Below are positions 1 to 58,677 of a stretch of 64,000 nucleotides of DNA, one piece after another. Positions within the stretch are counted from its first letter, which is position 1, and every line of letters starts with the position of its first letter. Under the pieces are notes generated by a model. The model was not told where the DNA came from and searched no databases. It saw only the letters and a list, made by a program, of their open reading frames with translations. Where the stretch lies: the NCBI RefSeq assembly GCF_055900595.2, contig NZ_CM148325.1; one strand, given 5' to 3'. Both the position numbers and the translations under genes were made by a program.

Positions 1-24
1 TATCAGGTGGATTTGAGTAAGTAA
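1..24 (+). CDS. 3' terminal fragment of an upstream gene running off the window (7 codons ...YQVDLSK then TAA); position corresponds to cpdB in K-12 synteny
   Basis: Frame 1 is open from position 1 to TAA at 22-24; gene order (cpdB next to ytfH) recalled from E. coli K-12; too short to confirm by sequence. Confidence 0.3.
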   Translation, partial: YQVDLSK

Positions 25-49: not shown

Positions 50-148
50 AACCGCATCCGGCATTTATTGGCGGATGCGGTGCTGCTGCATCTTATCCGC
101 CCTACAGGTCATGAACCGTAGGCCGAATAAGCGCAGCGCATCTGGCTG
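50..148. repeat. REP-like palindromic units (GC-rich imperfect inverted repeats, ccgcatccgg...ccggatgcgg style) in the cpdB-ytfH intergenic region
   Basis: Imperfect palindromes ccgcatccggca...gcggatgcgg and ...aggccgaataagcgcagcgcatctggc resemble E. coli REP consensus. Confidence 0.45.
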
Positions 149-4778: not shown

Positions 4779-5086
4779 GTTTTTTTCTTCCTGTACCTGT
4801 CTGTGTTGTTCAGGCTCTGCGGCCTTTAGTCAGTCTATGATACGACGAATCTGTATCGGGACTCATCGATATTAGGTAACAATACGCGGGATGAATACTA
4901 AGATTTAGATCTAATGTTAATTTTATGTTTAAAGTGAGTGTCATATCACGGTGATAACGCGAAACAGCTCACAAAAATACACGCTTACGTGGTCTTTGCA
5001 ACACAAAATAGCGCCATTTGGCAAACTGAAGGGTTTATTGCTGAATGCCTGCTCCCCTCTGGCTCGAGGGGAACAGAATGCGCTGC

Positions 5087-5707
5087 TTAGAGGATTTCCA
5101 GCAGTTCGACTTCAAACACCAGGGTGCTGAACGGAGGGATGGACGCGCCTGCGCCACGCTCGCCATATGCCAGTTCCTGCGGGATAGTCAGTTCCCATTT
5201 AGAACCTACCGGCATCAGAGTCAGTGCTTCAATCCAGCCAGGGATCACGCCGTTAACCGGGAATTCAGCTGGCTCGCCGCGAGCGACGGAGCTGTCAAAC
5301 ACGGTGCCGTCGATCAGTTTTCCGGTGTAATGAACACGAACGCGGTCGGTACGTGCCGGAATTGCGCCTGCACCCTGGTTGATCACGCGGAATTGCAGGC
5401 CAGATTCGGTGCTATTCACACCTTCTTTTTTGGCGTTTTCTTCCAGGTATTTCACACCTTCAGCAGCCATCGCCTGGAAACGCTGACGACGAACGGCATC
5501 GGCGCGTTCGTGGATTTCACGCAGCGCGCGGTGCACCACATCAACCGGAACAGCCGGATGTTTGCCTTCCAGCGCATCGGCAATGCCTGCAACCAGTGCT
5601 TCTGGCAGCAGCCCTTCCAGGCCTGATTCACTCAGTTGTTGCCCTACCTGCAAACCAATGCCGTAGCTTGCTTGCGCTTCGATGGTGTCAAAAGTTGGGG
5701 TGGTCAT
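5087..5707 (-). CDS. fklB: FKBP-type peptidyl-prolyl cis-trans isomerase FklB
   Basis: Start chosen at internal ATG (5705-5707) giving 206 aa [12 protein letters not shown]...; C-terminal FKBP domain; the track ORF extends 53 codons further upstream and is rejected. Confidence 0.9.
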
Positions 5708-5924
5708 CGTATTTCCTTTCTTAGGGTATAAAGTAGCGGGCAGCATATCAGCCACACTTCTTTGGGTAAAACTTTGTCGCGGGAATGATGACAAATCCCG
5801 GGGAAAAAGAAACAATAGCAATATCCCGTATGAATATAATAAAGGCGGGTTTACCACGGACATCATAGCGTTAGCTTATTCATAGGCTATGATTGAGGAA
5901 CAAGACGCGGAGCAGGAGGAAACC

Positions 5925-6563
5925 ATGCCCGGGCGCTTTGAACTAAAACCAACCCTGGAGAAAGTCTGGCACGCGCCGGACAATTTTCGCTTCATGGACC
6001 CGCTACCGCCGATGCATCGTCGGGGGATCATTATTGCCGCTATTGTATTGGTGGTCGGATTTCTACTCCCGTCTGATGATACGCCAAACGCGCCGGTGGT
6101 GACGCGTGAAGCACAGTTAGATATTCAGTCGCAATCACAACCGCCGACAGAAGAACAGCTGCGGGCGCAATTAGTCACACCACAAAATGATCCTGATCAG
6201 GTGGCTCCGGTCGCTCCAGAACCGATACAGGAAGGCCAACCGGAAGAGCAGCCGCAAACCTCGCAAGTGCAACCTTTCCAGCCAGATAGCGGAATTGACA
6301 ATCAATGGCGCTCTTATCGTGTCGAACCCGGTAAAACAATGGCGCAGCTGTTCCGCGACCACGGACTGCCCGCTACCGATGTCTATGCAATGGCGCAGGT
6401 AGAAGGCGCAGATAAGCCACTGAGTAATTTGCAAAATGGGCAGATGGTGAAAATCCGCCAGAACGCCAGCGGCGTGGTGACGGGCTTAACCATTGATACG
6501 GGAAATAATCAACAGGTCCTGTTTACCCGCCAGCCGGATGGCAGTTTTATTCGCGCGCGGTAG
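5925..6563 (+). CDS. ytfB: Cell-division-associated OapA-domain protein YtfB
   Basis: ATG at 5925 with AGGAGGA RBS (5913-5919); 212 aa; one TM helix then Pro/Gln-rich linker; in-frame upstream ATG at 5889 also possible. Confidence 0.85.
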
Positions 6564-7194
6564 ATGAAGGGTCAACCAGAAGCCAGCTAAGGATCGTCTC
6601 TTTGATGACCTTACGCCTGGCTTCCAGTGCCTGCGGTGAAACCATACTGATGTGATAAACCAGGCCAAGCGTATGTTGGTTGATCAAATAATATCCTCCA
6701 AGAGCAGCAATATTAATATTCACCTGCAACGGGTCGATATCTGGCTTAAAAATATTGCGCCGTTTGCCTTCAGCTAATAATGACTCCATTAACTGTAAGT
6801 GTGCGTGGTTAATTTCTAAAAGGCGCTGTGATTTTGCATAATGCACCCCTTTACTCTGGTTTTCACTATGCACAATTTTTAAAAACCAGGGGTTAGCAAT
6901 GTAATAATCCCAGGTGAAATCGATAATTTTCTCAATGGCTTTTTGTGGCGGAAGACCTGAGAAATCAAGGGATTTTTCTTTTTGCCGAATATCATTCCAG
7001 GTATATTCCAGCACTTCGATAAATAAATTTTCTTTATTACCAAAGTGATGATAAACCGTCTGTTTACTGCACTCCGCGGCCTTGACGATATTATCGACTC
7101 TGGCCCCTTCGTAACCATATTCGGCAAATTCATTAACCGCACATAACAACAGCTTTTCCTTCAGGCTTTGTACGTTGCTGGTATCAAGATACAT
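6547..7194 (-). CDS. TetR/AcrR-family transcriptional regulator, divergent from the downstream operon (possibly the full-length counterpart of the K-12 ytfA fragment)
   Basis: N-terminal HTH region [48 protein letters not shown] typical of TetR family; start set at ATG 7192-7194 (215 aa); upstream in-frame start at 7254 possible; low GC. Confidence 0.8.
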
Positions 7195-7316
7195 TCCGCT
7201 TCCCCACGTCTTCTTCGTGATGACTATCTTAACCCGATTTGTTAGAAGCTCCACTAAAATGGCTAAAAACTCGCAATTTCATCGGGTTATCAAATGCTCT
7301 GTGATCATTATCGCAT

Positions 7317-7338
7317 ATCAACCAACTAGATGGTTGAT
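7317..7338. promoter_or_regulatory. Candidate TetR operator: perfect 8-6-8 palindrome ATCAACCA-actaga-TGGTTGAT between the divergent regulator and SDR genes
   Basis: Palindrome read directly from sequence, about 70 nt upstream of the SDR start codon and 120 nt upstream of the TetR gene start. Confidence 0.5.
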
Positions 7339-7405
7339 CTTTCTTGCCACACATTGCAAGCTAATCGTCACTTAAGGAAATAATATTCAAAAAGAGGGTT
7401 ATTGT

Positions 7406-8197
7406 ATGAAGTCAACACGTCCTGTTGCTGTCATCACTGGAGCCGCACGTGGTATTGGAAAGGGCTGTGCACTGGAACTTGCGCGTGGCGGATTTAATCT
7501 GCTGATTAATGATCGTCCGGATGCCGACAGCGTAGAAAAATTACATGCCACACAACAAGAATGTCTGGCGGAAGGCGTGGAAGTGATTTGCTTCCCTGCT
7601 GATGTTGGCGATCTCTCCCTTCATGAAGAGATGCTCGACGCGGCGCAAAACCAGTGGGGACGTCTGGACTGTCTACTCAACAACGCAGGCATTTCAGTGA
7701 AAAAACGCGGTGACCTCCTCGACCTCGAACCAGACAGCTTCGACCAAAACATTGCCATTAACACCCGTGCGCCGTTCTTCCTTGCTCAGGCATTCAGTAA
7801 GCGATTACTGGCACAGCCGAAACCGGAAGCAGAACTGCCGCACCGCTCGATTATTTTTGTCAGTTCCATAAACGCCATCATGCTGGCGATGAATCGCGGC
7901 GAATATACCATTGCCAAAACTGCCGTCTCCGCCGCAGCTCGCCTGTTTGCCGCTCGCCTTTGCAATGAACAAATTGGCGTTTATGAAGTGCGCCCTGGCC
8001 TAATCAAAACCGATATGACCATTCCGGCAACGGCTTATTACGACGAACTGATTGCTAAGGGGTTAGTGCCGTGGGGACGTTGGGGTTATCCGGCTGATAT
8101 TGCCTCAACGGTCCGCGCGATGGCGGAAGGCAAACTGATTTACACCTGTGGTCAGGCGGTCGCCATCGACGGCGGCTTAAGTATGCCGCGCTTCTGA
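7406..8197 (+). CDS. Short-chain dehydrogenase/reductase (SDR) family oxidoreductase
   Basis: 263 aa; TGAARGIG cofactor-binding motif, NNAG, and catalytic Ser...YxxxK (YTIAK); RBS GAGGG. Confidence 0.85.
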   Translation: MKSTRPVAVITGAARGIGKGCALELARGGFNLLINDRPDADSVEKLHATQQECLAEGVEVICFPADVGDLSLHEEMLDAAQNQWGRLDCLLNNAGISVKKRGDLLDLEPDSFDQNIAINTRAPFFLAQAFSKRLLAQPKPEAELPHRSIIFVSSINAIMLAMNRGEYTIAKTAVSAAARLFAARLCNEQIGVYEVRPGLIKTDMTIPATAYYDELIAKGLVPWGRWGYPADIASTVRAMAEGKLIYTCGQAVAIDGGLSMPRF

Positions 8198-8206
8198 GGC
8201 TGAATC

Positions 8207-9049
8207 ATGAGAGATCTGTTACAACGCCCGGATTTATTCAGTATCAATACTGCGACACTGGGCTATAAAACACCGCTACCTGCCATTATTGATGCCTGCG
8301 CCGCACGCGGTATTGGCGCGATTGCCCCCTGGCGCAGGGAGTTACAGGGTGAAGATCTCCAACAAATCGCCCGCCAGCTTGCTGCCAGTAACATGAGCGT
8401 TTCCGGTTTGTGCCGTAGCACCTATTACACCGCGCCGACGCTGACGGAACGCAAACTGGCGATTGATGATAACCGCCGGGCGCTGGACGACGCCGCTGTA
8501 CTAAACGCCGCCTGTTATATGCAGGTGGTTGGCGGTCTGCCAATGGGAACAAAAGATCTGTACGAAGCGCGGGAACAAGTGAAACAAGGGATTCGCCAGT
8601 TGCTGCCACATTCGAAAGATGTCGGCGTGCCAATTGCGCTGGAGCCGCTGCACCCGATGACAGCTGCCGATCGCTCTTGCCTGTGCACGTTACGTCAGGC
8701 GCTGGACTGGTGTGATGAACTCGATCCCGATGGGGAGTTTGGCCTCGGCGTGGCGGTAGATGTCTACCACGTTTGGTGGGATCCGGATCTCGCCAGTCAG
8801 ATCCTGCGTGCCGGAAAACGCATCCTCGCGTTTCATGTTTCCGACTGGCTGGTGCCAACCACCGATTTAGTCAATGACCGGGGAATGCCGGGAGATGGCG
8901 TAATCAATATTCCGTCTATTCGTCGCCAGGTAGAAAATGCCGGATTTAACGGTGCTGTGGAACTGGAAATTTTCTCACCGTACTGGTGGCAGCAAGATAT
9001 TAACAGCACGTTGGATATTAGCGTCGATCGCATCGCGCATTATTGCTAA
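8207..9049 (+). CDS. Sugar phosphate isomerase/epimerase-like (xylose isomerase-like TIM barrel) enzyme
   Basis: 280 aa; family assignment from overall sequence character (judged by eye, less certain than neighbours); 9-nt gap after the SDR gene. Confidence 0.6.
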   Translation: MRDLLQRPDLFSINTATLGYKTPLPAIIDACAARGIGAIAPWRRELQGEDLQQIARQLAASNMSVSGLCRSTYYTAPTLTERKLAIDDNRRALDDAAVLNAACYMQVVGGLPMGTKDLYEAREQVKQGIRQLLPHSKDVGVPIALEPLHPMTAADRSCLCTLRQALDWCDELDPDGEFGLGVAVDVYHVWWDPDLASQILRAGKRILAFHVSDWLVPTTDLVNDRGMPGDGVINIPSIRRQVENAGFNGAVELEIFSPYWWQQDINSTLDISVDRIAHYC

Positions 9050-9052
9050 GGA

Positions 9053-9835
9053 ATGATCATGAGTGACCAACCCGTTCTGTTCAGCAGAGCGGCGGCTTCC
9101 TGCCGCCTGACATTGAACCGTGAAGATAAATGTCATGCTATTAATGAAGAAATGATCGAATCTCTCGACCATTATTTAAATGAAATTGAAAACGACACCA
9201 CATTACGATTAGTCGAATTAACGGCAACCGGCGATAAATTCTTTTGTGCGGGCGGCGATATTAAATCGTGGTCGGCCTATTCGCCATTAGATATGGGCAG
9301 AAAATGGATTAAACGCGGCAATGACGTTTTTAATCGCCTGCGCAACTTACCCCAATTAACGGTTGCGAATCTCAACGGTCATACCATCGGCGGCGGTATT
9401 GAACTTGCCTTGTGCTGCGATATTCGTATTGCCCGCCCCAGTGCGAAATTCTCTAATCCGGAAGTAATGCTCGGCATGGTGCCTGGCTGGATGGGCATTG
9501 AACGCGTGCTTAATCAGGTCGGTCCGGTGGTCGGTCGCCAGATGCTGATGCTGGGTAAACGCCTGACGGCGCAGGAAGCTCAGGCGGCGAATTTAATTGA
9601 TGAAGTGGTAGAAAAAGAACAGGTGGAAAGCTGGATGGCGAATCAGTTAGCGCAGCTGGAAAAATGCGGTCCGGTGGCGCTCGCACATATCAAGCAACTG
9701 ATTCTGGCTCTAGAAAATAAACATGCTGATTACCCGCACCAGTTACTGGCTGGATTAATGTCCGCCACTCAGGATTGCCAGCAGGCGACGCGCGCATTTG
9801 CCGAAAAAAGTAGCGTGAGCTTCCAAAATCAATAA
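9053..9835 (+). CDS. Enoyl-CoA hydratase/isomerase (crotonase) family protein
   Basis: 260 aa; FCAGGDIKSW and GHTIGGGIELALCCDIRIA crotonase signature segments; 3-nt gap after the upstream gene. Confidence 0.85.
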   Translation: MIMSDQPVLFSRAAASCRLTLNREDKCHAINEEMIESLDHYLNEIENDTTLRLVELTATGDKFFCAGGDIKSWSAYSPLDMGRKWIKRGNDVFNRLRNLPQLTVANLNGHTIGGGIELALCCDIRIARPSAKFSNPEVMLGMVPGWMGIERVLNQVGPVVGRQMLMLGKRLTAQEAQAANLIDEVVEKEQVESWMANQLAQLEKCGPVALAHIKQLILALENKHADYPHQLLAGLMSATQDCQQATRAFAEKSSVSFQNQ

Positions 9836-9844
9836 GGAAATTGT

Positions 9845-11386
9845 ATGCGTAAGATAACAACCGCCGAGACACTGGCGGCGCAAATTCAGGACGGCGCAAC
9901 CATTGCCATTAGCGGTAATGGCGGCGGCATGGTGGAAGCGGACCATATTCTGGCTGCTATTGAAGCGCGTTTCCTGCAAACCGGACACCCGCGCGATCTG
10001 ACATTAATCCACTCACTGGGCATTGGCGATCGCGACTGCAAAGGCACTAACCGCTTCGCTCATGCAGAGATGCTCAAACGCATCATTGCCGGACATTTTA
10101 CCTGGTCGCCCAAGATGCAGGATCTGGTGAAAAACAATGCTATTGAAGCCTACTGCTTCCCTGGTGGCGTAATTCAGGCACTGCTGCGGGAGATCGGTGC
10201 CGGACGTCCAGGGCTTTTTACCCACGTTGGGCTGGGATCGTTTGTTGATCCGCGCAACGGCGGCGGTAAGTCGAACGCTAGCAGCACTGAGGATCTGGTA
10301 GAACTGATTGAAATCGACGGTGAAACCAAACTTCGTTATCGCCCCTTCAAAGTGGACTACGCGATTTTGCGTGGCACTTATGCCGATCCGCGTGGCAACG
10401 TCAGCCTCGAAGAAGAGGCGATTGATATGGATAGCTATTCCATGGCGCTGGCAGCACACAACAGCGGCGGCAAAGTGTTCGTACAGGTGCGCGATGTGCT
10501 GGAAGCTGGTGCCATTGAACCACGCCGGGTCAAATTACCGGGCATTCTGGTTGATGGCATCGTTGAACACCGCGAACAACCGCAAACCTATCTTGGCGGT
10601 TACGACCTGACCATCAGCGGTCAGCATCGCCGTCTAAGTTCTAACGACGCAATTGAACTGGTTAGTCATCCGGTGCGCCGCCTGATTGCCCGTCGGGCAG
10701 CACGCGAACTGGTGGCTGGCGCTTCAACCAACTTTGGCTTTGGCATTCCCGGCGGCATTCCTGGGGTTGCACTGCGCGAAGGCGTGCCTTATCAAAGTTT
10801 ATGGCTGAGCGTAGAACAGGGTGTACATAACGGCATGATGCTGGATGATGCTCTGTTCGGCTGCGCCCGCAACGCCGATGCCATTATTCCATCACTCGAT
10901 CAATTCGAATTCTACAGTGGCGGAGGGATCGATATCACCTTCCTCGGCATGGGAGAGATGGATCAGTACGGTAACGTCAACGTCTCCCATCTCAATGGCA
11001 ATCTCATTGGCCCCGGCGGATTTCTCGAAATTGCGCAAAACGCCCGTAAAGTGGTGTTCTGCGGCACGTTCGACGCCAAAGGTAGCACGATTGATGTAAC
11101 ACCAGATGGCTTGCATATCGCCCAGTCAGGTCAAATCCCTAAACTGGTTACCCAGGTGGAAAAAATCACTTTTAGCGCCGCCTACGCACAGCAAAGCGGT
11201 CAGGAAGTGTTGTATATCACTGAACGTGCAGTATTCCAGTTAACAGCAGAAGGCGTTGAATTAATTGAAATCGCACCAGGTGTGGAGATTGAGCGCGACA
11301 TTCTGCCGCATATGGCCTTCCGTCCAATTATCAATCAGCCACGCCTGATGGAAAGTAGCCTGTTTACGCCGATGGAGGATGCATGA
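9845..11386 (+). CDS. Family-I CoA-transferase (fused alpha/beta, YdiF / propionate-CoA-transferase-like)
   Basis: 513 aa; N-terminus TAETLAAQIQDGATIAISGNGGGM and size match acyl-CoA:acetate/3-ketoacid CoA-transferases; RBS AAGGA. Confidence 0.75.
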   Translation: MRKITTAETLAAQIQDGATIAISGNGGGMVEADHILAAIEARFLQTGHPRDLTLIHSLGIGDRDCKGTNRFAHAEMLKRIIAGHFTWSPKMQDLVKNNAIEAYCFPGGVIQALLREIGAGRPGLFTHVGLGSFVDPRNGGGKSNASSTEDLVELIEIDGETKLRYRPFKVDYAILRGTYADPRGNVSLEEEAIDMDSYSMALAAHNSGGKVFVQVRDVLEAGAIEPRRVKLPGILVDGIVEHREQPQTYLGGYDLTISGQHRRLSSNDAIELVSHPVRRLIARRAARELVAGASTNFGFGIPGGIPGVALREGVPYQSLWLSVEQGVHNGMMLDDALFGCARNADAIIPSLDQFEFYSGGGIDITFLGMGEMDQYGNVNVSHLNGNLIGPGGFLEIAQNARKVVFCGTFDAKGSTIDVTPDGLHIAQSGQIPKLVTQVEKITFSAAYAQQSGQEVLYITERAVFQLTAEGVELIEIAPGVEIERDILPHMAFRPIINQPRLMESSLFTPMEDA

Positions 11387-13455
11387 GTCAGCTTGATGAC
11401 ACCCTCCTTGATGCGCTGACGCACGTCACTTTCCCGAAGGGTTTTGCACAGGCAGAACCCGCATGGGTTGTCACGGTAGACGGTGTTGATTACCCACTCT
11501 GGCAAACAGATGCCCTGGTAGTCGGCAGTGGTGCAGCCGGGCTGCGTGCAGCTGTGGAACTTAAGCGCCGCCAGCAAAATGTGCTGATCGCCACCGCCGG
11601 GTTATATATGGGGACATCGGCATGTTCTGGTTCCGATAAACAGACGCTGTTTACCGCCGCTACCGCGGGCAACGGCGATAACTTCGCCAAACTGGCAGAG
11701 GCACTGGCGAGCGGCGGCGCAATGGATCACGATACCGCTTATGTTGAAGCGGTTGGTTCCCTGCACACTCTTGGCGGGTTGCAATATCTTGGTCTGGAAT
11801 TACCGGAAGATCGCTATGGCGCAATTCTTCGTTATCAAACCGACCATGACGAAGCCGGGCGAGCAACCTCGTGTGGGCCGCGGACCTCAAGGTTAATGGT
11901 GAAAGTACTGCTGGAAGAAGTACAGCGTCTCGCCATTCCAGTGTTGACCAGTGCAACAGTAATTAAACTGCTGCATCAGCGTGACGAAAACGGTGAAGAC
12001 CGCGTGGCGGGGGCAATCCTCGCGACCGGTCATCGTGCCCATAACCCATGGGGGCTGGCAATTGTGACTGCGCCCAATGTGGTACTGGCAACAGGAGGGC
12101 CTGGCGAGCTTTATCGTGACAGTGTGTACCCACACAAATGTTTCGGCTCGCTGGGGCTGGCGCTGGAAGAAGGTCTGACGTTAACGAATCTGACCGAAAG
12201 CCAGTTTGGTATAGGCACGCCGCGCAGCACCTTTCCGTGGAATTTATCCGGGACTTATGTACAGGTGATCCCATACATCTATTCGGTGGATGCCGGGGGC
12301 AACGAGTATAACTTCCTCGCAGATTACTATCGCACCACCCAGGAGCTGGCTTCAAACATCTTCCGTAAAGGCTATCAGTGGCCGTTTCACGCCACACGAG
12401 TGATGGATTTTGGCTCCAGCTTGTTAGATATGGCAGTAGCGCAAGAGCAGCAATCAGGACGTCAGGTATTTATGGATTTCAATCGCAATCCTGAACCTGT
12501 GCCGGGTGACCTGCCGTTCTCATTAGATCGACTGGACGACGACGTTCGCGCGTATCTGGAAAATAACGACGCTCTGGCACCATCGCCCATCGAACGACTG
12601 CAACGAATGAATCCGCTGTCTATCTCGCTGTATAAGATGCACGGTTACGATCTCACCACGCAGCCATTGCAGTTTGCCATGAATAATCAGCATATGAATG
12701 GCGGCATTGAAGTGGATATCTGGGGGCAAACCTCCCTGTCCGGCTGTTTCGCCGTGGGGGAAGTTGCTGGCACACACGGCGTCACTCGCCCTGGTGGTGC
12801 GGCATTGAATGCCGGGCAGGTTTTTGCTGTTCGTCTGGCACGTTTTATTGGTTGCACGCAAAAACGTAATATTGATGGAGATATAGCACAGCTGGTAGCT
12901 CCGGCACTGGCTTCTATAAGAGAGATCATTACTCAGGCGCACGATAACGGGACCGGGATGCCGTTGTCGGTTGTGAGGGAAAAAATTCAGGCACGAATGT
13001 CTGACCATGCGGGATTTATTTGTCATGCCGATAAAGTCCGACGCGCCACTCGTGATGCCCTGCTATTGAACGAATTTGTGCAACGGCATGGATTGGCAAT
13101 CAAACATGTGGGTGAAGTTGCCGAGCTGTTTATGTGGCGGCATATGGCGCTGACTTCTGCCGCGGTATTAACACAATTAACGCATTATATTGATGCTGGT
13201 GGTGGTAGCCGTGGGGCGCGTATGGTTATTGATCCACAAGGCAAATGCCTACCACAAACTCGTCGCGGCGCAAAAGAAGAATGGCGTTTTCGCTCTGAAC
13301 TCGCTGAAGACAAAAATCACAAATTAACAATTCAATATTCGCAAGGTTCTTTTATTACCGAAGTAAAGTCTTTACGTATGCAACCGTGTATTAACGGTAT
13401 TTACTTTGAAAAAAACTGGCCAGACTTTTTAAAGGGAGACATTTACACACAGTAA
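11383..13455 (+). CDS. FAD-dependent oxidoreductase of the fumarate reductase/succinate dehydrogenase flavoprotein superfamily (soluble, stand-alone)
   Basis: 690 aa; ALVVGSGAAGLRAAVEL dinucleotide-binding motif after a ~45-aa N-terminal extension; C-terminal GEVAGTHGVTRPGGAALNAGQVFA resembles the FrdA/SdhA HGANRLGxNSL segment; start overlaps the CoA-transferase stop (ATGA). Confidence 0.8.
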   Translation: MSQLDDTLLDALTHVTFPKGFAQAEPAWVVTVDGVDYPLWQTDALVVGSGAAGLRAAVELKRRQQNVLIATAGLYMGTSACSGSDKQTLFTAATAGNGDNFAKLAEALASGGAMDHDTAYVEAVGSLHTLGGLQYLGLELPEDRYGAILRYQTDHDEAGRATSCGPRTSRLMVKVLLEEVQRLAIPVLTSATVIKLLHQRDENGEDRVAGAILATGHRAHNPWGLAIVTAPNVVLATGGPGELYRDSVYPHKCFGSLGLALEEGLTLTNLTESQFGIGTPRSTFPWNLSGTYVQVIPYIYSVDAGGNEYNFLADYYRTTQELASNIFRKGYQWPFHATRVMDFGSSLLDMAVAQEQQSGRQVFMDFNRNPEPVPGDLPFSLDRLDDDVRAYLENNDALAPSPIERLQRMNPLSISLYKMHGYDLTTQPLQFAMNNQHMNGGIEVDIWGQTSLSGCFAVGEVAGTHGVTRPGGAALNAGQVFAVRLARFIGCTQKRNIDGDIAQLVAPALASIREIITQAHDNGTGMPLSVVREKIQARMSDHAGFICHADKVRRATRDALLLNEFVQRHGLAIKHVGEVAELFMWRHMALTSAAVLTQLTHYIDAGGGSRGARMVIDPQGKCLPQTRRGAKEEWRFRSELAEDKNHKLTIQYSQGSFITEVKSLRMQPCINGIYFEKNWPDFLKGDIYTQ

Positions 13456-13547
13456 TTTTCAATATTTACTCTGTACCTGATTTTTATTGCCTATTACATG
13501 GAAATACCAACAACCAGGGTTTATTAATATAATTAAAAGGTTTAAAA

Positions 13548-14825
13548 ATGAATAAAATAAAGAATTATCGATGGCATATGATTGCCCTCGTATGCTTTAT
13601 CACTGTAATCAATTATCTGGACAGAACGGCGTTAGGTATTGCGGCTCCAACGATTATGGAGACAACCGGAATAACCAAAGAACAATATTCATGGATTGTC
13701 AGTGCATTCCAGTTGGCCTATACATTGGGGCAACCGGTAATGGGCTTCTTTATTGATACCGTGGGTCTGAAGTTAAGTTTTGCGATATGTGCCGCAATCT
13801 GGGGCCTGGCGACAATGGGGCATGCCTTGACAGGAACATGGTCAGGTCTGGCATTTATGCGCGCCCTGATGGGTTTCAGCGAAGCATCGGCAATTCCTGC
13901 GGGTGTAAAAACCGCATCAACATGGTTCCCGGCAAAAGAGCGTGGCGTGGCGACAGGTGTTTTCAATATGGGCACCTCACTCGGCGCGATGCTTGCTCCA
14001 CCGTTGATTGCCTGGTGCATTATGTTTCATAGCTGGCAATTTGCGTTTATTGTCTCAGGTAGCCTTGCTTTACTCGCGGCTTTATTTTGGTTCTTTTGTT
14101 ATAAAGATCCAAAAGATGCTAAACGCCTTTCTGATGAAGAGCGCCACTATATTGAGTCTGGGCAAGAACAGCATCTTAAAACAGATAAGAAAGAAAAAAC
14201 GTCAATCAAGCATATCCTCAGCCAACGTAATTTCTGGGGGATTGGCATCGCGCGTTTTCTCGCTGACCCGGCATGGGGAACCATTAACTTCTGGGTACCG
14301 ATTTTCTTCGTCGAAACGCTGCATTTTAGCCTGAAAGAAATTGCCATGTTCGTCTGGCTGCCTTTCCTGCTGGGCGATCTCGGCTGTTTAGCCAGTGGTT
14401 TTGTCGCGAAGTTCTTCCACGATCGCGGCGTGAGTTTAATTAACTCACGAAGAATTACCTTCACTATTGCAGCCGTCATTATGATGACGATTGGTCTGGT
14501 GAGTATTGTCGAAAATCCCTACATCGCCGTATTACTGATTAGCATTGGCGCATTCTCGCATCAATGTCTTTCTACTGTTGCAGCAACTCTGGGCGGTGAC
14601 CTATTCAAAAAAGACGAAGTAGCTACCGCTGTGGGTATGGCAGGAGCCTGTGCATGGAGCGGTCAGTTGATTTTCAACCTGTTTATCGGGGCATTCGTTC
14701 ACATTATTGGCTTCGCGCCGTTCTTTATTGCCCTGGCTTTCTTTGACATTATTGGTGCTATTGCGTTGTGGACGCTTATCAAAGTTAAAGATGAAGAACC
14801 ACAAGTACAGTTAGCTACCCACTAA
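13548..14825 (+). CDS. MFS transporter, anion:cation symporter (ACS) subfamily-like (ExuT/DgoT/GudP-type)
   Basis: 425 aa, about 12 TM segments; N-terminal RWHMIALVCFITVINYLDRTALGIAAP is characteristic of ACS-family organic-anion permeases. Confidence 0.8.
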   Translation: MNKIKNYRWHMIALVCFITVINYLDRTALGIAAPTIMETTGITKEQYSWIVSAFQLAYTLGQPVMGFFIDTVGLKLSFAICAAIWGLATMGHALTGTWSGLAFMRALMGFSEASAIPAGVKTASTWFPAKERGVATGVFNMGTSLGAMLAPPLIAWCIMFHSWQFAFIVSGSLALLAALFWFFCYKDPKDAKRLSDEERHYIESGQEQHLKTDKKEKTSIKHILSQRNFWGIGIARFLADPAWGTINFWVPIFFVETLHFSLKEIAMFVWLPFLLGDLGCLASGFVAKFFHDRGVSLINSRRITFTIAAVIMMTIGLVSIVENPYIAVLLISIGAFSHQCLSTVAATLGGDLFKKDEVATAVGMAGACAWSGQLIFNLFIGAFVHIIGFAPFFIALAFFDIIGAIALWTLIKVKDEEPQVQLATH

Positions 14826-14836
14826 TTATTTTAAAT

Positions 14837-14868
14837 AAAAACGCTATAATTGAGGTTATGGCGTTTTT
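14837..14868 (+). terminator. Intrinsic terminator after the MFS transporter gene
   Basis: Hairpin aaaacgctataa/ttatggcgtttt (one mismatch) with short loop, followed by a T-run, 12 nt past the stop codon. Confidence 0.55.
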
Positions 14869-15094
14869 AAAGAAGCTTGAGTTATCGAACCTAGCTTACC
14901 AACGCGTTGTCAGTCATCTCCCCCCTCCCTGGTGCATCGTTATATCCGTGATGAGCGATTTTTGATATTAATATCTTTCACCATCCGCTATTTTCACCAC
15001 TTCAGAAAACAAACTTATTTTTATTAATATCAATTCTTTTTCTTTGAACATTCAACTGCGATATTTGTAAAAATATTAAACAGGCAACAATAAA

Positions 15095-17726: not shown

Positions 17727-18002
17727 ATGTTCAGCCGTGTTTTAGCCCTTCTGGCTGTGCTTTTGCTAAGTGCAAATACATGGGCAGCCATTGAAATTAA
17801 TAACCACCAGGCCAGAAATATGGACGATGTGCAAAGCTTAGGCGTGATTTATATCAATCATAATTTCGCCACTGAAAGCGAAGCGCGTCAGGCATTAAAT
17901 GAAGAGACAAATGCGCAGGGCGCAACGTACTACCACGTGATTCTGATGCGGGAACCGGGGAGTAACGGCAATATGCACGCCAGCGCGGATATTTATCGCT
18001 AG
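17727..18002 (+). CDS. yjfY: Secreted DUF1471 (YdgH/BhsA/McbA-family) protein YjfY
   Basis: 91 aa with N-terminal signal peptide MFSRVLALLAVLLLSANTWA; RBS GAGGAGG. Confidence 0.9.
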   Translation: MFSRVLALLAVLLLSANTWAAIEINNHQARNMDDVQSLGVIYINHNFATESEARQALNEETNAQGATYYHVILMREPGSNGNMHASADIYR

Positions 18003-18066: not shown

Positions 18067-18075
18067 ATGCGCCAT

Positions 18076-18627
18076 TCAACGAATAACGACTTCCGGATCC
18101 GGCTCATGAGTAATGCGATTACGTAAGTCGCGGCGCATAATTTCTATTATCCAGAACCAGAAAATGTGCCCAAGGATTTCAGATGCATATTCGTCAAAAG
18201 GCAATTGAGTGAGCGGCGGCGTTAAATTCAGCGCCGGGCAAAATATACCGTGGACTGCCACTGTCACAATAAGCCCTGCTAATATCCCCTGCCATAATTT
18301 CACTTTCGGGAAAATTTCCGCGACCACACAATACCCTATCGCAAAAACCAGTGAGAAGATGATATGCGTCACCATCACCGGGTTGATAATATGTTCCGAG
18401 AATGTATACACAGTTTGGGTTGGGTCGATCCCTAAATAATCCCGTAGAAAGATATACGGCGGATTAAACTCATCGCGACCACCGGAAAATGTGCGCGGTG
18501 GCAAGGGAACTTCCGCTCCCCATTTAACAAATGCTGAAATAATTCCTGAAAGTACACCCACAAGTAACGCAACGCCATAACGGCGACGCTGCGGATCCGT
18601 TCTGACAAACAATCCGTTGATAGCCAT
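18076..18627 (-). CDS. Putative inner membrane protein, YagU/DUF1440-like
   Basis: 183-aa ORF with several hydrophobic helices; segments [37 protein letters not shown] resemble the YagU family as I recall it; I do not recall a gene at this position in K-12. Confidence 0.6.
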
Positions 18628-18723
18628 AAAAACACCTGTTGTTTATACGATTTTTTAACTGAAACGGCCCCGGAATCAGACCAATTACATCCCGCAGGAG
18701 GTAATAATTCCGGGGCGCACTGC

Positions 18724-24549: not shown

Positions 24550-24656
24550 TCTGTCGTTTATACCGGATGGCGTGGAGAAGTTCGCGCTATCCGGCGTAGT
24601 ATTTCCTGGCTATTTCAAATATCATCTAAAAAAATCAAATTTTATCGGAATAGCTC

Positions 24657-27117: not shown

Positions 27118-27152
27118 TGCCGGATGCGGCACCTGTGCCTTATCCGGCCAAC
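27118..27152. repeat. REP element (gccggatgcggc...cttatccggcc)
   Basis: Classic REP palindrome read directly, between yjfN and aidB. Confidence 0.7.
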
Positions 27153-31841: not shown

Positions 31842-32908
31842 ATGCTTCCCTCAATGTCCTGCCATGCCACTTCTTCAGCCAAAATACGGTTATTGCCAAT
31901 AAGATGCAGCCACATACCGCCTTTAACTTCCGTTGCAATGACTGGATTCAGTTCCATTCCCCTACCATTTTTACAACTGCTTATTCCCAGGACGGTGGCA
32001 TCATGATGAAGTTTCATATAATGCATCAATGCGCCATAACGCATTGAGGTAACCCGTTCAGGAATCGGTAAAACAAACCCCGTATCCCCCAGCATTGGAT
32101 TCATAATCGATGCCACTGATTGAGATGAACCGGGATCTTGTATTGAACGGGAAAGTTGTTCTGCTGAAATATTTCGCACTATTTCAATACGTTGACAATG
32201 AACCTCTAATAAACGAGCGTAGCGTTCATCTTCCAGATAAGCGACGATATGGCATCTTTCAGGAATAAAATCCGCCAGGGATAGTGCGGTCGTGAACGTC
32301 TGCTCATCAGTTTGCGAAAAGATGATGACACTTTGGCAATTTGCCAGTCCCATGCGGGTATGTTCATGCGGATCATTAAAATTACTAATACGAATGAAAT
32401 CGACCCAATTATTTCCAGGCATCGGATGTTGAATATCATCCCGCTCACACAAAAGTACCCGGCCAAATGCTCTTCGGGAATCAAACAACAATAATGAAAT
32501 CATCTTTTCAGTCTGATGCCCGCGCCATCCAATGACCAGCATATGGTTGCGCAAATTGCTGTAGTCGCCCATTCCCGTCATTCCTTTCGCCAATATGTCT
32601 TGCACTAATGCAATGACTTTTCCCATTAAAGCGCCAAATAAACCAACACTCACAGGAATCTGCCAGAGCGCTGTGAACAGACGTCCCCCCACCGTTTGGG
32701 GTGTGATATCACCAAACCCCAGCGTTGATCCCACAACCGAGCAGTAATAAATAAAATTACTCAGTTGACCTACCAACGCCTCTTCATGCAACGCAGTTAA
32801 CACCAGATAACAAAACAGATACTGTCCTGTAAATAATCCAGTCAATGCCGGCCAGGTAAGCCTGGAAAGGTGACGTCGGCAGGTTTTAATGATCCATGAG
32901 AAGAACAT
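31838..32908 (-). CDS. Two-TM K+-channel-like membrane protein with a C-terminal cytoplasmic domain (possibly RCK/TrkA-like), inserted between yjfJ and yjfK
   Basis: 356-aa ORF; hydrophobic helix - pore-loop TLGFGDITP - hydrophobic helix; C-terminal soluble domain with VIGWRG segment; about 43% GC in sampled stretches and rare codons CGA/AGA/AGG/GGA/TTA seen; coupled by TAATG to yjfJ and ATGA to yjfK. Confidence 0.8.
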   Translation of the reverse strand: MFFSWIIKTCRRHLSRLTWPALTGLFTGQYLFCYLVLTALHEEALVGQLSNFIYYCSVVGSTLGFGDITPQTVGGRLFTALWQIPVSVGLFGALMGKVIALVQDILAKGMTGMGDYSNLRNHMLVIGWRGHQTEKMISLLLFDSRRAFGRVLLCERDDIQHPMPGNNWVDFIRISNFNDPHEHTRMGLANCQSVIIFSQTDEQTFTTALSLADFIPERCHIVAYLEDERYARLLEVHCQRIEIVRNISAEQLSRSIQDPGSSQSVASIMNPMLGDTGFVLPIPERVTSMRYGALMHYMKLHHDATVLGISSCKNGRGMELNPVIATEVKGGMWLHLIGNNRILAEEVAWQDIEGSI

Positions 32909-34152: not shown

Positions 34153-34884
34153 TTAGCTACGCTGGCGTACCGCTTCAAATAAGCAAATGCCTGTCGCCAC
34201 AGAAACGTTCAGCGAAGAAACACTTCCTGCCATTGGGATGCTGATCAACTCATCGCAATGTTCACGGGTCAGGCGACGCATGCCTTCACCTTCTGCGCCC
34301 ATCACCAGTGCCAGCCGTCCGGTCATTTTGCTCTGATAGAGCGTATGATCCGCCTCACCTGCCGTACCGACGATCCAGATATTCTCTTCCTGCAACATAC
34401 GCATGGTGCGCGCAAGGTTAGTCACCCGAATCAGCGGAACGCTTTCTGCCGCGCCGCAGGCTACTTTTTTCGCCGTGGCGTTGAGCTGTGCGGAGCGATC
34501 TTTCGGCACAATCACCGCATGAACACCTGCGGCGTCCGCGCTACGCATACATGCACCCAGGTTATGCGGATCGGTTACACCGTCGAGGATCAGCAGGAAC
34601 GGCTGATCGAGCGAAGCGAGCAGATCCGGCAGATCATTTTCCTGATACTGACGTCCAGGCTTCACACGGGCGATAATGCCCTGATGCACGGCACCGTCGC
34701 TTTTCTCGTCGAGATATTGGCGGTTTGCCAGCTGGATAACCACGCCCTGGGACTCAAGGGCGTGAATCAGCGGCAACAGACGTTTATCTTCACGGCCTTT
34801 TAAAATAAAGACTTCCTGAAAACGTTCAGGGGCGCGCTCCAGCAGGGCCTGCACTGCGTGGATGCCGTAAATCATTTCGCTCAT
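34153..34884 (-). CDS. rlmB: 23S rRNA (guanosine2251-2'-O)-methyltransferase RlmB
   Basis: 243-aa SpoU-family ORF. Confidence 0.93.
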
Positions 34885-34908
34885 TAATGTACTCGTTGTT
34901 TACGTTTT

Positions 34909-35007
34909 GCCTGATGCGCTACGCTTATCAGGCCTACATGATCCCTGCAATGTATTGAATTTGCCTGATTATGTAGGCCGGATAAGGCGTTCACGCCGCA
35001 TCCGGCA
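34909..35007. repeat. BIME-type repeat: two REP units flanking an AT-rich spacer (gcctgatgcgctacgcttatcaggcctac ... gtaggccggataaggcgttcacgccgcatccggca)
   Basis: Classic REP consensus palindromes read directly, between rnr and rlmB. Confidence 0.8.
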
Positions 35008-35064
35008 TGAACAAAGCGCATTTTGTCAGCAATCTGCCCCTCTTCTGTTTGAAGAGGGTAATGA

Positions 35065-37506
35065 TCACTCTGCCACTTTTTTCTTCGCCGCACGCTTCGC
35101 TTTGGTCGCTGCGGCTATTTTCTGCGTTTTCGCCGATGGCTTTTTCGCTTTTCTCGCGTCTTTCTTCGCCGCTTTCGGCTTCGTTTTTTTCTCGCCGCGG
35201 AAAGCGCTGTCTGGCTCAAAGTTTACCTTTTTACCAACCTGACGACGCTTGCCGCCTTTTTTGCCTGCATCGCCTTTTTTCGCTTTCTCGCGCGCGGTTT
35301 TACCGACGTTGCGCGGTGCGCGTTCGCTGGAGATCAGGCTAAAGTCGATTTTGCGCTCGTCCATATTAACCGCTTCGACGCGAACTTCCACGCGATCGCC
35401 CAGGCGATAAGTCTGGCCGCTGGATTCACCCATCAGGCGTTGTCCCACCTGGTCAAAGCGATAGTAGTCATTGTCCAGCGAAGAGACGTGGACCAGACCA
35501 TCGATGAACAAGTCATCCAGGCGAACAAAGAAGCCAAAGCCAGTGACACTGGAAATCACGCCTTTAAAGACGTTACCTACCTGGTCGAGCATGAAGTCAC
35601 ACTTCAGCCAGTCAGCCACATCGCGCGTTGCTTCGTCGGCACGACGTTCCGCCATCGAACAGTGCTGACCCAGTTGCAGCATTTCTTCCATCGAATAATG
35701 GTAGCCGCCGGTTTCAGTGGTGTTGCCCTGATGCCCTTGCTCTTTCGCCAGCAGATACTTAATGGCGCGGTGGAGCGTCAGATCAGGATAACGACGAATC
35801 GGCGAAGTAAAGTGCGCATAGGACTGCAATGCCAGACCGAAGTGACCGCGGTTTTCCGGATCGTAAATCGCTTGTTTCATCGAGCGCAACAGCATGGTTT
35901 GCAGCATTTCTGCGTCAGGACGGTCAGCAACCGATTCCAACAGTTCCGCGTAGTCACGCGGTTCCGGCTTGTTACCGCCAGGCAATTCCAGCCCCAGCTC
36001 CGCCAGCACTGAACGGAAAGAGGTTATTGCTTCAGTGCTCGGCTTGTCGTGAATACGGAACAGTGCCGGTTCTTTGGCCTTCTCAACGAAACGCGCCGCC
36101 GAGATATTCGCCAGAATCATGCACTCTTCAATTAACTTGTGTGCGTCGTTACGCTGGGTCTGTTCGATACGCTCAATACGGCGTTCAGCGTTGAAAATGA
36201 ACTTCGCTTCTTCGCTCTCAAACGAGATCCCGCCGCGTTCTTCACGGGCTTTATCCAGCACTTTATAGAGGTTATGCAGCTCTTCGAGATGCTTAACCAG
36301 CGGGGAGTACTGCTCGCGCAGATCCTGATCGCCCTGCAGAATATGCCAGACTTTGGTGTAGGTCAGACGCGCGTGAGAGCTCATCACCGCTTCGTAGAAT
36401 TTGTAGCCCGTCAGGCGGCCTTTCGACGAAATGGTCATCTCGCAAACCATACACAAGCGGTCTACCTGCGGGTTGAGCGAGCACAGGCCGTTAGAGAGCA
36501 CTTCCGGCAGCATCGGGATAACCTGCGAAGGGAAGTACACCGACGTACCACGGTTACGCGCTTCTCTGTCCAGCGGTGTTGGCGGACGCACATAGTAGCT
36601 GACATCGGCAATTGCGACCCACAAACGCCAGCCGCCGCCGCGTTTTTTCTCGCAGTAAACTGCATCGTCAAAGTCACGGGCGTCTTCGCCATCAATGGTG
36701 ACCAGCGGTAAATCGCGCAGATCGACACGGCCAGCTTTCGCCTCTTCCGGTACTTCTTCTTTCAGCCCGGCAACCTGTTGCTCAACAGCCTGCGGCCAGA
36801 TGTACGGAATTTCATGGGTGCGCAGAGCGATATCAACCGCCATGCCAGTCCCCATATTATCGCCCAGCACTTCGACGATTTTACCCACCGCTTTGGTACG
36901 GCGAGTCGGGCGTTGGGTCAGTTCAACCACCACCACAAAGCCCATCCGCGCGCCCATGATCTGATCGGGCGGGATTAAGATATCGAAGCTCAAACGACTG
37001 TCGTCAGGAACCACAAAGCCGACACCCGCTTCGGTAAAGTAGCGACCAACAATCTGGCTGGTTTTTGGTACCAGTACGCGGACAATACGCGCTTCACGGC
37101 GGCCTTTACGGTCAGCGCCCAGCGGCTGTGCCAGCACCTGATCGCCATGAATGCATGTTTTCATCTGCTCGCTGGAGAGATACAAATCATCTTTACGTCC
37201 TTCAACCCGCAGAAAGCCGTAGCCATCACGGTGGCCAATAACGGTACCTTTCACCAGGTCGAGGCGTTCCGGCAGCGCATAGCACTGACGGCGAGTGAAG
37301 ACCAGTTGACCATCGCGCTCCATCGCGCGCAGGCGGCGACGCAGGCCTTCAAGCTGCTCTTCGCCTTCAATGTGCAGTTCTACCGCCAGCTCATCACGGC
37401 TGGCCGGTTTTTCACGTTTGGTTAAATGTTCGAGGATAAATTCCCGACTAGGGATGGGATTCGCGTATTTTTCAGCTTCGCGTTCCTGGAAAGGATCTTG
37501 TGACAT
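35065..37506 (-). CDS. rnr: Ribonuclease R
   Basis: 813 aa from ATG 37504-37506 ([10 protein letters not shown]...); RNB domain and Lys-rich C-terminal tail; track ORF extended 14 codons. Confidence 0.93.
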
Positions 37507-37544
37507 CTCGGTTCCTCCGTTGTCATCTCTGATGAAGATTTTCG

Positions 37545-37970
37545 TCACTCCACCAGCAATAATTTATAAAGCGGTTGATTCTCTTCAACCAAATCGGCAA
37601 GCGTGTAGTTATCCAGTTCCATAAGAAAACTTTGCACGGCCTTAGAAAGCGCCTGTTTCAACCGACAGGCAGGTGTAATGTGGCAAAACTCACTGCTGCA
37701 ATTCACCAGCGATAAGGGCTCCAGCTCGCGCACCACATCACCAATACGTATCGCACTCGCCGGTTTACCCAGGCGAATGCCGCCATTTTTTCCACGAACA
37801 GCAGTCACGTAGCCGGCACGACTAAGTTGATTGATTATTTTGACCATATGATTACGGGAGACGCCGTAGACGTCAGTCACTTCAGAAATACTGGTCATCC
37901 GCCCTTCTGGCAATGACGCCATGTAGATCAGCGCACGTAATCCGTAATCAGTGAAACTCGTTAACTGCAC
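37545..37970 (-). CDS. nsrR: Nitric-oxide-sensing Rrf2-family repressor NsrR
   Basis: 141-aa ORF with N-terminal HTH; three Cys for the Fe-S cluster. Confidence 0.93.
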
Positions 37971-48114: not shown

Positions 48115-50093
<1,979 letters not shown>

Positions 50094-51502: not shown

Positions 51503-51578
<76 letters not shown>

Positions 51579-51613
51579 TTGGGTGGTCTGTGCTTTGCAG
51601 CACTTTCAAATTT

Positions 51614-51689
<76 letters not shown>

Positions 51690-51846
51690 TTAATCTTCGT
51701 CTTTCGAACCGCTACTGCCTTGGCTGCCTTCACTCACCTTAGTCACTTACTTTTGTAAGCTCCCAAGGATTCGTTCAGTTGCCGCCTTGTCACAATTCGA
51801 AATACTGCGATTGGGTGGTCTGTGCTTTGCAGCACTTTTCAAATTT

Positions 51847-51922
<76 letters not shown>

Positions 51923-53825: not shown

Positions 53826-53921
53826 CAATTAAGCTAACCGTCGTTAGAATCGTCCCCTTTTTTTCAGGATCCGGCATGTAGGCCGGATCAGGAACGACAA
53901 AACAATGGCCTGGAGGCTACC

Positions 53922-58580: not shown

Positions 58581-58677
58581 GAGATAATCGGTCGCTTAAT
58601 TTCGCTATAGCGCATACGAAATCCCGCTAATTCCCTGTCATTGCGCCCTATCGTCAGGCAGACGATAGGGCATCGGG

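Follow-up and report, generated by a model that had tools for sequence, protein, structure and literature searches.

A REP pair of BIME-1 type between rnr and rlmB of Escherichia coli and the two alleles of its locus

Catalogues of REP and BIME elements in Escherichia coli go back decades, and the spacer between rnr and rlmB raises two questions about them: what kind of repeat lies there, and whether it, or other REP units nearby, marks a place at which strains have come to differ in gene content. The window, by which we mean the whole stretch of 64,000 nucleotides analysed here, is a piece of E. coli chromosome in reverse orientation to K-12, running from the 3' end of cpdB (window 1–24) to frdA. 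The original prediction placed a BIME-type cluster of two inverted REP units around an AT-rich spacer in the rnr–rlmB gap, listed further units at 50–148 and 27118–27152, and suggested that such elements may stabilise mRNA, bind gyrase or IHF, and serve as breakpoints of the strain-specific differences nearby.

By megablast, the segment 34400–35500 found a match in 5,425 of 5,426 complete E. coli genomes, and the annotation of the matched region names rlmB and rnr. RNA-seq assigned rnr and rlmB to one operon (PMC4161252), so that the repeat sits in the spacer separating two genes of the same operon. The operon is named differently in PMC4161252 and PMC3534368: nsrR-rnr-rlmB-yjfI in one, and a longer 14-gene operon in the other. 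Across the window, sequence shared with K-12 was only about 94–98% identical, and 99% identity was reached by just 12–20 of about 5,400 genomes at the tested sites, indicating that the window belongs to an E. coli lineage that is fairly divergent and seldom sequenced.

The REP pair in the rnr–rlmB gap

The gap and its flanking genes contain the following features.

34153–34884, minus strand: rlmB, with its ATG at 34884
34885–35064: rnr–rlmB gap, 180 nt
34908–34937, minus strand: Z1-type REP; plus-strand sequence TGCCTGATGCGCTACGCTTATCAGGCCTAC, minus-strand sequence 5'-GTAGGCCTGATAAGCGTAGCGCATCAGGCA
34938–34972: L linker of BIME-1, 35 nt, 23/35 A+T (66%), between the CTAC and GTAG feet
34948–34960, minus strand: IHF-consensus-like core predicted from sequence, ATTCAATACATTG, matching 12/13 positions of the IHF consensus WATCAANNNNTTR
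34973–35007, plus strand: Y-type REP, 5'-GTAGGCCGGATAAGGCGTTCACGCCGCATCCGGCA, the reverse complement of the Y REP consensus
35008–35036: flanking motif of the BIME-1 family, 29 nt, TGAACAAAGCGCATTTTGTCAGCAATCTG, belonging to the repeat unit
35038–35058, minus strand: non-REP hairpin, CCCTCTTC/GAAGAGGG, starting 6 nt past the rnr stop; context, not part of the BIME
35065–37548, minus strand: rnr, with its stop codon at 35065–35067

The minus strand of the Z1 REP is the mRNA-sense strand for rnr and rlmB. On this strand the order from rnr to rlmB is flanking motif (35036–35008), Y REP (35007–34973), L linker (34972–34938) and Z1 REP (34937–34908), and the CTAC and GTAG feet of both REPs are turned toward the linker. 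The Z1 REP ends 23 nt upstream of the rlmB ATG.

Our analysis confirmed the predicted REP cluster by consensus, profile and family matches. On formal alignment, the test by which the original prediction proposed to stand or fall, the Y unit was identical at 34/34 positions to the 34-nt REP consensus GCCGGATGCGGCGTGAACGCCTTATCCGGCCTAC quoted in PMC12306157, and the Z1 unit was identical at 29/29 positions to GCCTGATGCGCTACGCTTATCAGGCCTAC(G), one of three REP queries printed in PMC11208160. Searches by nhmmer with profiles built from 141 independent copies gave E = 2e-12 for Z1 and E = 2e-14 for Y. The REP foot CTTATCMGGCCTAC, allowing two or fewer mismatches, occurred 6 times in the window against 0.37 expected, a count reached by none of 100 shuffles, and the GTAG tetranucleotide was found at the foot of the units at 34908–34937, 34973–35007, 70–105 and 118–146. 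All REP units were extragenic, lying between annotated genes, and a REP-containing query had a median of at least 40 matching places per genome (5425 genomes). The arrangement of two inverted units around an AT-rich spacer was likewise as predicted. Of the predicted extent, 34909–35007, the REP pair itself stood (34908–35007), but the end did not, since the repeat unit runs 29 nt on to 35036.

Both units are imperfect palindromes with an internal mismatch or bulge and are predicted to form stem-loops, the structure by which REP units are recognised. The Y RNA hairpin had a predicted energy of −21.3 kcal/mol (z −5.3), with the fold.((((((((.((((....)))).))))))))...., and the Z1 RNA hairpin one of −12.9 kcal/mol (z −3.3); the entire gap folds at −72.2 kcal/mol (z −7.4). 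At the Rfam gathering threshold, no RNA family was detected in any of the three REP regions.

The linker and flank place the pair in a larger family. We searched a single genome of each species for the linker core preceded by a REP foot, using the pattern CCTACN{5,11}TGCAATNTATTGAATTT, and obtained at least 144 matches with foot and L core at at least 120 loci; those listed came from Escherichia albertii, E. whittamii, E. coli, two further Escherichia species and Pseudocitrobacter. Linker and flank are therefore not unique to rnr–rlmB, as the scan found at least 144 matches elsewhere. The 141 copies with full flanks among the matches listed were aligned and gave the family consensus: left flank ACTGATGACAAACGCAAAAT, Z1 TGCCTGATGCGCTACGCTTATCAGGCCTAC, L ATGATTTCTGCAATATATTGAATTTGCATGATTTT, Y GTAGGCCGGATAAGGCGTTCACGCCGCATCCGGCA and right flank TGAACAAAGCGCACTTTGTCAACAATCTGA. 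In all 141 copies, the L core had a short Z REP on one side and a Y REP on the other. The Z1 unit of the window was identical (30/30) to the commonest family copy, which was common to 65/141, and the Y unit to the commonest Y copy, common to 44/141. Per-column conservation of at least 90% extended over Z1, apart from its CCTAC foot, and over the complete Y REP. Conservation of the L core and the CCTAC foot follows from the search pattern itself; since the pattern fixed only these two parts, the conservation of the rest of Z1, of Y and of the flanks is independent evidence for the family. The linker core TGCAATGTATTGAATTTG is common to the K-12 rnr–rlmB copy and the K-12 copy between paeA and msrA, and a full-text literature search for the L-linker sequence returned no paper.

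The segment 35008–35036 belongs to the same repeat. It scored 25/30 against the family flank motif, with a maximum score of 11 among 1000 random segments of the window, and it also aligned with the K-12 BIME-1 copy between paeA and msrA. On the Z1 side, the family flank motif was absent at rnr–rlmB (score 3), and the native rlmB leader directly adjoins the REP. The rnr–rlmB copy is therefore partial, as its Z1-side flanking motif is missing.

BIME-1 has been described as one Y and one Z1 in inverted orientation around a long, well-conserved L linker, often with an IHF site and in single copy, and BIME-2 as Y and Z2 with short variable linkers in tandem arrays (PMC3333891). The long, 37-nt Z unit is Z2 (PMC2817692), and the short 30-nt unit found here is thus Z1; its alignment with the 37-nt Z2 required 7 gap positions. 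The gap holds one Y–L–Z1 unit with no tandem amplification, and the match spanned 256–281 nt in 42/42 sampled genomes covering at least 91% of a 281-nt query across the gap. The conserved L linker, with its IHF-consensus match, also identifies the element as BIME-1 and not as the gyrase-preferred BIME-2. Judged by its sequence, the rnr–rlmB element is a canonical BIME-1. We take this E. coli family to be the one also called RIB or RIP.

The scan yielded further observations on the family. Pseudocitrobacter faecalis, P. vendiensis and a Pseudocitrobacter MAG contained many near-consensus BIME-1 copies with both flank motifs, so that the family is not confined to Escherichia. Escherichia sp. MOD1-EC7003 carried tandem Z1–L–Y arrays that repeat every 107 nt and reach 8 copies, although BIME-1 is usually described as a single-copy element. 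E. coli-type BIME-1 was also met on short contigs of assemblies labelled Bacteroides, Desulfosporosinus, Collinsella, Alkalicoccobacillus and Methylobacterium; these contigs are probably enterobacterial contamination.

Two alleles of the gap and their history

The element is already known, and K-12 carries the same element with 8 substitutions. The K-12 RefSeq record lists no repeat feature at rnr–rlmB, and none at 5000–6000 either, where a REP annotation was expected, so its silence carries no weight. The 281-nt gap-spanning query split E. coli into two alleles. The BIME-1 allele was present in about 71% of genomes, as 3,842 of 5,425 complete genomes covered at least 80% of the query. The remaining genomes (about 29%, and 17/59 rows of an evenly spaced sample) had a short allele with 63–64% query coverage and a span 90 nt shorter. 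Strains with the short allele include Nissle 1917, NC101, ST131 strains and an APEC O2:K1:H4 strain, all of which we assume to belong to phylogroup B2. The short allele is without the flank, the Y unit and the linker, and the 30 nt of Z1 are taken by a different REP, GTAGGCCGGGCAAGCGTGGCGCTCCCGGCA.

The orthologous gaps of other species, retrieved via members of the RlmB protein cluster, bear on the order of events. In Salmonella enterica the gap matches the short allele at almost every base, down to the 9 nt TGAATTATC before the REP. At rnr–rlmB, E. albertii and E. whittamii carry the BIME-1 allele. No homologous REP was found in the orthologous gaps of Klebsiella and Enterobacter. The REP shared by Salmonella and about 29% of E. 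coli (GTAGGCCGGGCAAGCGTrGCGCyCCCGGCA) is of an older class, resembling REP classes that PMC2817692 lists for Klebsiella and Citrobacter. Z1 takes exactly the 30 nt of this older REP, and 10 nt of unique sequence are lost.

The simplest reading of these sequences is that the single REP is ancestral and that a BIME-1 unit was added on top of it in the Escherichia lineage. BIME-1 would then have taken the place of the single REP, one junction falling within the resident unit or at its border. That Z1 stands exactly where the old REP stood points to recombination of the incoming repeat with that unit. The two alleles are distributed at odds with the species tree, BIME-1 being found in E. albertii and E. 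whittamii and absent from one large group of E. coli; this makes the order of events a deduction rather than a proof. Either the filled allele spread by recombination or an old polymorphism persisted.

It is possible, though we regard it as somewhat improbable, that BIME-1 spreads by exchange with a resident REP, that the filled allele moved between lineages by homologous recombination, and that the locus keeps the empty and filled states of this process at base resolution. If this is true, BIME-1 units do not insert at random. The locus provides a small, well-defined natural example for the open question of how REP and BIME elements are disseminated, and the 90-nt length dimorphism is a clean lineage marker that separates the group of Nissle 1917, NC101, ST131 and APEC O2:K1 from other E. 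coli. The discovery value is small, as this is a tidy case of a known kind of polymorphism.

Possible roles in DNA and RNA

REPs have been described as mRNA stabilisers, as terminators, and as binding sites for IHF, Pol I and gyrase (PMC3333891). For BIME-1, the documented protein partner is IHF, and the L linker frequently carries an IHF site (PMC3333891). IHF-like sites with at most one mismatch occurred at 0.056 per 50 nt in the window, and the match in the rnr–rlmB linker suggests that this copy, too, may bind IHF. As DNA, the linker would offer a candidate IHF site flanked by two cruciform-prone palindromes. The supplement of an IHF ChIP study (Kasho 2021), whose table is a limited peak set, has no entry for rnr, rlmB or the K-12 coordinates of the element, and a second IHF ChIP study (Prieto 2012) does not mention REPs or the rnr–rlmB locus.

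As RNA, Y and Z1 may fold either as two stable hairpins or as one composite hairpin of about 100 nt. Such hairpin structures would impede 3'→5' exonucleases, and slowed 3'→5' decay would favour accumulation of a decay intermediate ending with rnr, leaving rnr and rlmB mRNA levels partly uncoupled. From what is known of the family, we infer that the hairpins protect rnr mRNA and partially uncouple the two genes. RNase R and PNPase jointly degrade REP-containing mRNAs (PMC12320835). A secondary and speculative extension is that the REPs in the rnr 3' region feed back on rnr expression, to a degree that would differ between the two allele groups. REPs located within 15 nt of a stop codon have been linked to translational down-regulation of the upstream gene (PMC12306157). 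The Y hairpin, which is the first REP hairpin past rnr in the mRNA, starts 57 nt beyond the stop codon and is thus outside this distance.

The strong hairpins directly downstream of rnr could instead form an intrinsic (Rho-independent) terminator, or a pair of terminators, that ends the rnr transcript and leaves rlmB to its own promoter; REPs are able to terminate in some contexts, according to the literature (PMC3333891). One of these structures is the non-REP hairpin at 35038–35058, which has an 8-bp stem and a predicted energy of −13.9 kcal/mol (z −4.8) and is conserved in K-12, E. albertii, the single-REP allele of E. coli and Salmonella. However, no T-run follows this hairpin or either of the REP hairpins, a consensus scan of 34885–35064 showed no terminator-like and no promoter-like site, and rnr and rlmB lie in one operon by RNA-seq (PMC4161252). 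An intrinsic terminator ending the rnr transcript is thus unlikely, and we conclude that the rnr–rlmB element does not act as one. Partial Rho-dependent attenuation may occur at the gap. For annotation, the gap should be called neither a gene nor a terminator.

The proposed gyrase role held up less well than the identification of the element. Gyrase cleavage is preferential or enriched in BIME-2, that is, in Y/Z2 arrays, and BIME-1 was not among the types assayed (PMC6379681). In its strongest form, the proposal would make the element a strong gyrase site of BIME-2 type that acts mainly as a supercoiling insulator. The Y REP, the unit most often cleaved by gyrase (PMC6379681), is indeed present, and gyrase binding was part of the original prediction. 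Nevertheless, the partner of Y is a short Z1 and not a Z2, the two are separated by the 35-nt L linker, the unit is single copy with no tandem array, and the reported gyrase enrichment concerns BIME-2 (PMC6379681). We therefore consider an insulator of this kind more doubtful still than a terminator. The combined reading, a copy of the BIME-1 family that presumably arose on an older REP and has putative roles through IHF and RNA structure, is very probably right.

Other REP units, differences from K-12 and related systems

The further units that had been predicted at 50–148 and 27118–27152 are real, and the scans added a weak remnant.

51–63, minus strand: partial REP arm, TGCCGGATGCGGT, pairing with the left arm of the unit at 70–105
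70–105, plus strand: divergent long REP, closest to Z2, GGCGGATGCGGTGCTGCTGCATCTTATCCGCCCTAC
118–146, minus strand: short Z-type REP, GCCAGATGCGCTGCGCTTATTCGGCCTAC; nhmmer E = 7e-7 with the Z1 profile
27118–27152, plus strand: single Y-like REP between convergent yjfN and aidB; nhmmer E = 2e-4, −20 kcal/mol
53866–53893: weak REP remnant between rsgA and psd, GGATCCGGCATGTAGGCCGGATCAGG; nhmmer E > 1; absent from the original prediction

The units at 50–148 and 27118–27152 are ordinary members of the REP superfamily between convergent gene ends. The cluster at 50–148 lies between convergent cpdB (stop 22–24) and ytfH, and a 12-nt linker (106–117) parts its two larger units. The REP at 118–146 starts 2 nt past the ytfH stop codon (149–151), which is inside the 15-nt distance reported for lowered translation of the upstream gene (PMC12306157). 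The arrangement is conserved in K-12 and ST131, and O157:H7 has an 11-nt deletion within the REP at 118–146.

The REP at 27118–27152 has the foot GCCAAC rather than GCCTAC, so that its other strand reads GTTG instead of GTAG. At the same site, K-12 and other strains carry the REP with a GCCTAC foot, and the difference in the upper stem is compensatory. With a 301-nt query over this REP, only about 25 of 5,424 matching genomes reached 95% identity. The view that the REP is missing from most strains was rejected, because the alignment showed the REP to be conserved and placed an indel of about 33–34 nt in the adjoining unique sequence.

Three other candidates were rejected. Loose matches to the REP pattern at 24562–24599 and 48184–48220, with 5 substitutions each, were attributed to chance, since shuffled sequence gave a mean of 1.3 matches, and a partial nhmmer match at 17876–17894 (E = 0.024) lay within the yjfY coding sequence.

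Large differences from K-12 were found at 6950–14926, 18070–18661, 31844–32900, 51692–51808 and 58622–58629. The first belongs to an 8-kb metabolic cluster (6547–14926) that is absent from K-12 and has genes for a TetR regulator, a short-chain dehydrogenase, a xylose-isomerase-like TIM barrel protein, an enoyl-CoA hydratase, a CoA-transferase, an FAD oxidoreductase and an MFS transporter; the ytfA pseudogene of K-12 looks like a remnant of the regulator of this cluster. The segment 18070–18661 holds an extra gene for a DUF1440 membrane protein, and 31844–32900 is an extra segment of about 1 kb between yjfJ and yjfK, where the closest genome has a potassium channel family protein annotated. The difference at 51692–51808 is one of tRNA-Gly spacing: three tRNA-Gly genes are present at 51506–51922, with a spacer of about 160 nt between the second and the third, against about 35 nt for the spacers in K-12. 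At 58622–58629, about 270 nt are lost relative to K-12, including most of yjeN.

The idea that REPs are the recombination breakpoints behind such gene-content differences draws on two facts. The rnr–rlmB BIME is itself an insertion or replacement polymorphism, and at 27118–27152 the identity to K-12 is about 97% left of the REP and 79% in the 300 nt immediately to its right, where the REP adjoins a hypervariable stretch containing a 34-nt insertion. Nonetheless, three scans detected no REP at either edge of any of the five large differences, the nearest REP being about 2 kb off, and a check of the edges of the 8-kb insert revealed no repeats of note. To either side of the rnr–rlmB BIME, identity to K-12 was 95–97%, with no shift across it. 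Since no large K-12 difference abuts a REP, the breakpoint idea is not supported, and we consider it highly unlikely. The variation that is real has a smaller scope: the BIME locus itself varies between strains, and the REP at 27118–27152 has a hypervariable neighbour. The rnr–rlmB element is not where the nearby gene-content differences start. That the gap encodes a small protein can be dismissed as next to impossible: open reading frames do cross it (34884–35093, minus strand, 69 aa; 34907–35242, plus strand, 111 aa), and in strain ET625 (RefSeq) the region of the 281-nt match has a 'hypothetical protein' listed, but the sequence belongs to a repeat with many copies in intergenic regions unrelated to one another, the frames start inside or cross the palindromes, and about 29% of strains do without 90 nt of the gap.

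The BIME-1 copy at rnr–rlmB can be compared with several known systems. The subterminal hairpins of IS200/IS605 are likewise imperfect palindromes with a conserved foot tetranucleotide, and are recognised by a Y1 HUH transposase (PMC3333891). Unlike these, the rnr–rlmB element is only about 130 nt long and is without a transposase gene between its hairpins. The REPINs, or RAYT-associated REP doublets, of Pseudomonas and others are also inverted REP pairs that act as a unit with filled and empty sites, and are presumed to be non-autonomous and served by a single-copy TnpA_REP/RAYT gene. They differ in belonging to another REP sequence class and in being without a conserved IHF linker. The RAYT gene of E. 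coli, yafM, lies outside the 64-kb window.

BIME-2 is closer, sharing the Y REP and the alternating inverted arrangement with the rnr–rlmB element. In contrast, the 37-nt Z2, short variable linkers and tandem arrays of BIME-2 all have no counterpart at rnr–rlmB. The cpdB–ytfH cluster at 70–146, with its 12-nt linker and long Z2-like unit, is nearer to BIME-2 or to an atypical BIME.

The closest system is BIME-1 of E. coli itself (Ton-Hoang et al. 2012, after the Bachellier nomenclature), in which the same Y and Z1 are inverted with their feet facing an L linker of about 35 nt. The likeness extends to the IHF-consensus match, the single copy, the extragenic position at the 3' end of a gene and the same locus in K-12. 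The rnr–rlmB copy has the flank motif on its Y side only, and its linker core has G where most BIME-1 copies have A (TGCAATGTATTG); nothing essential sets it apart from a typical BIME-1.
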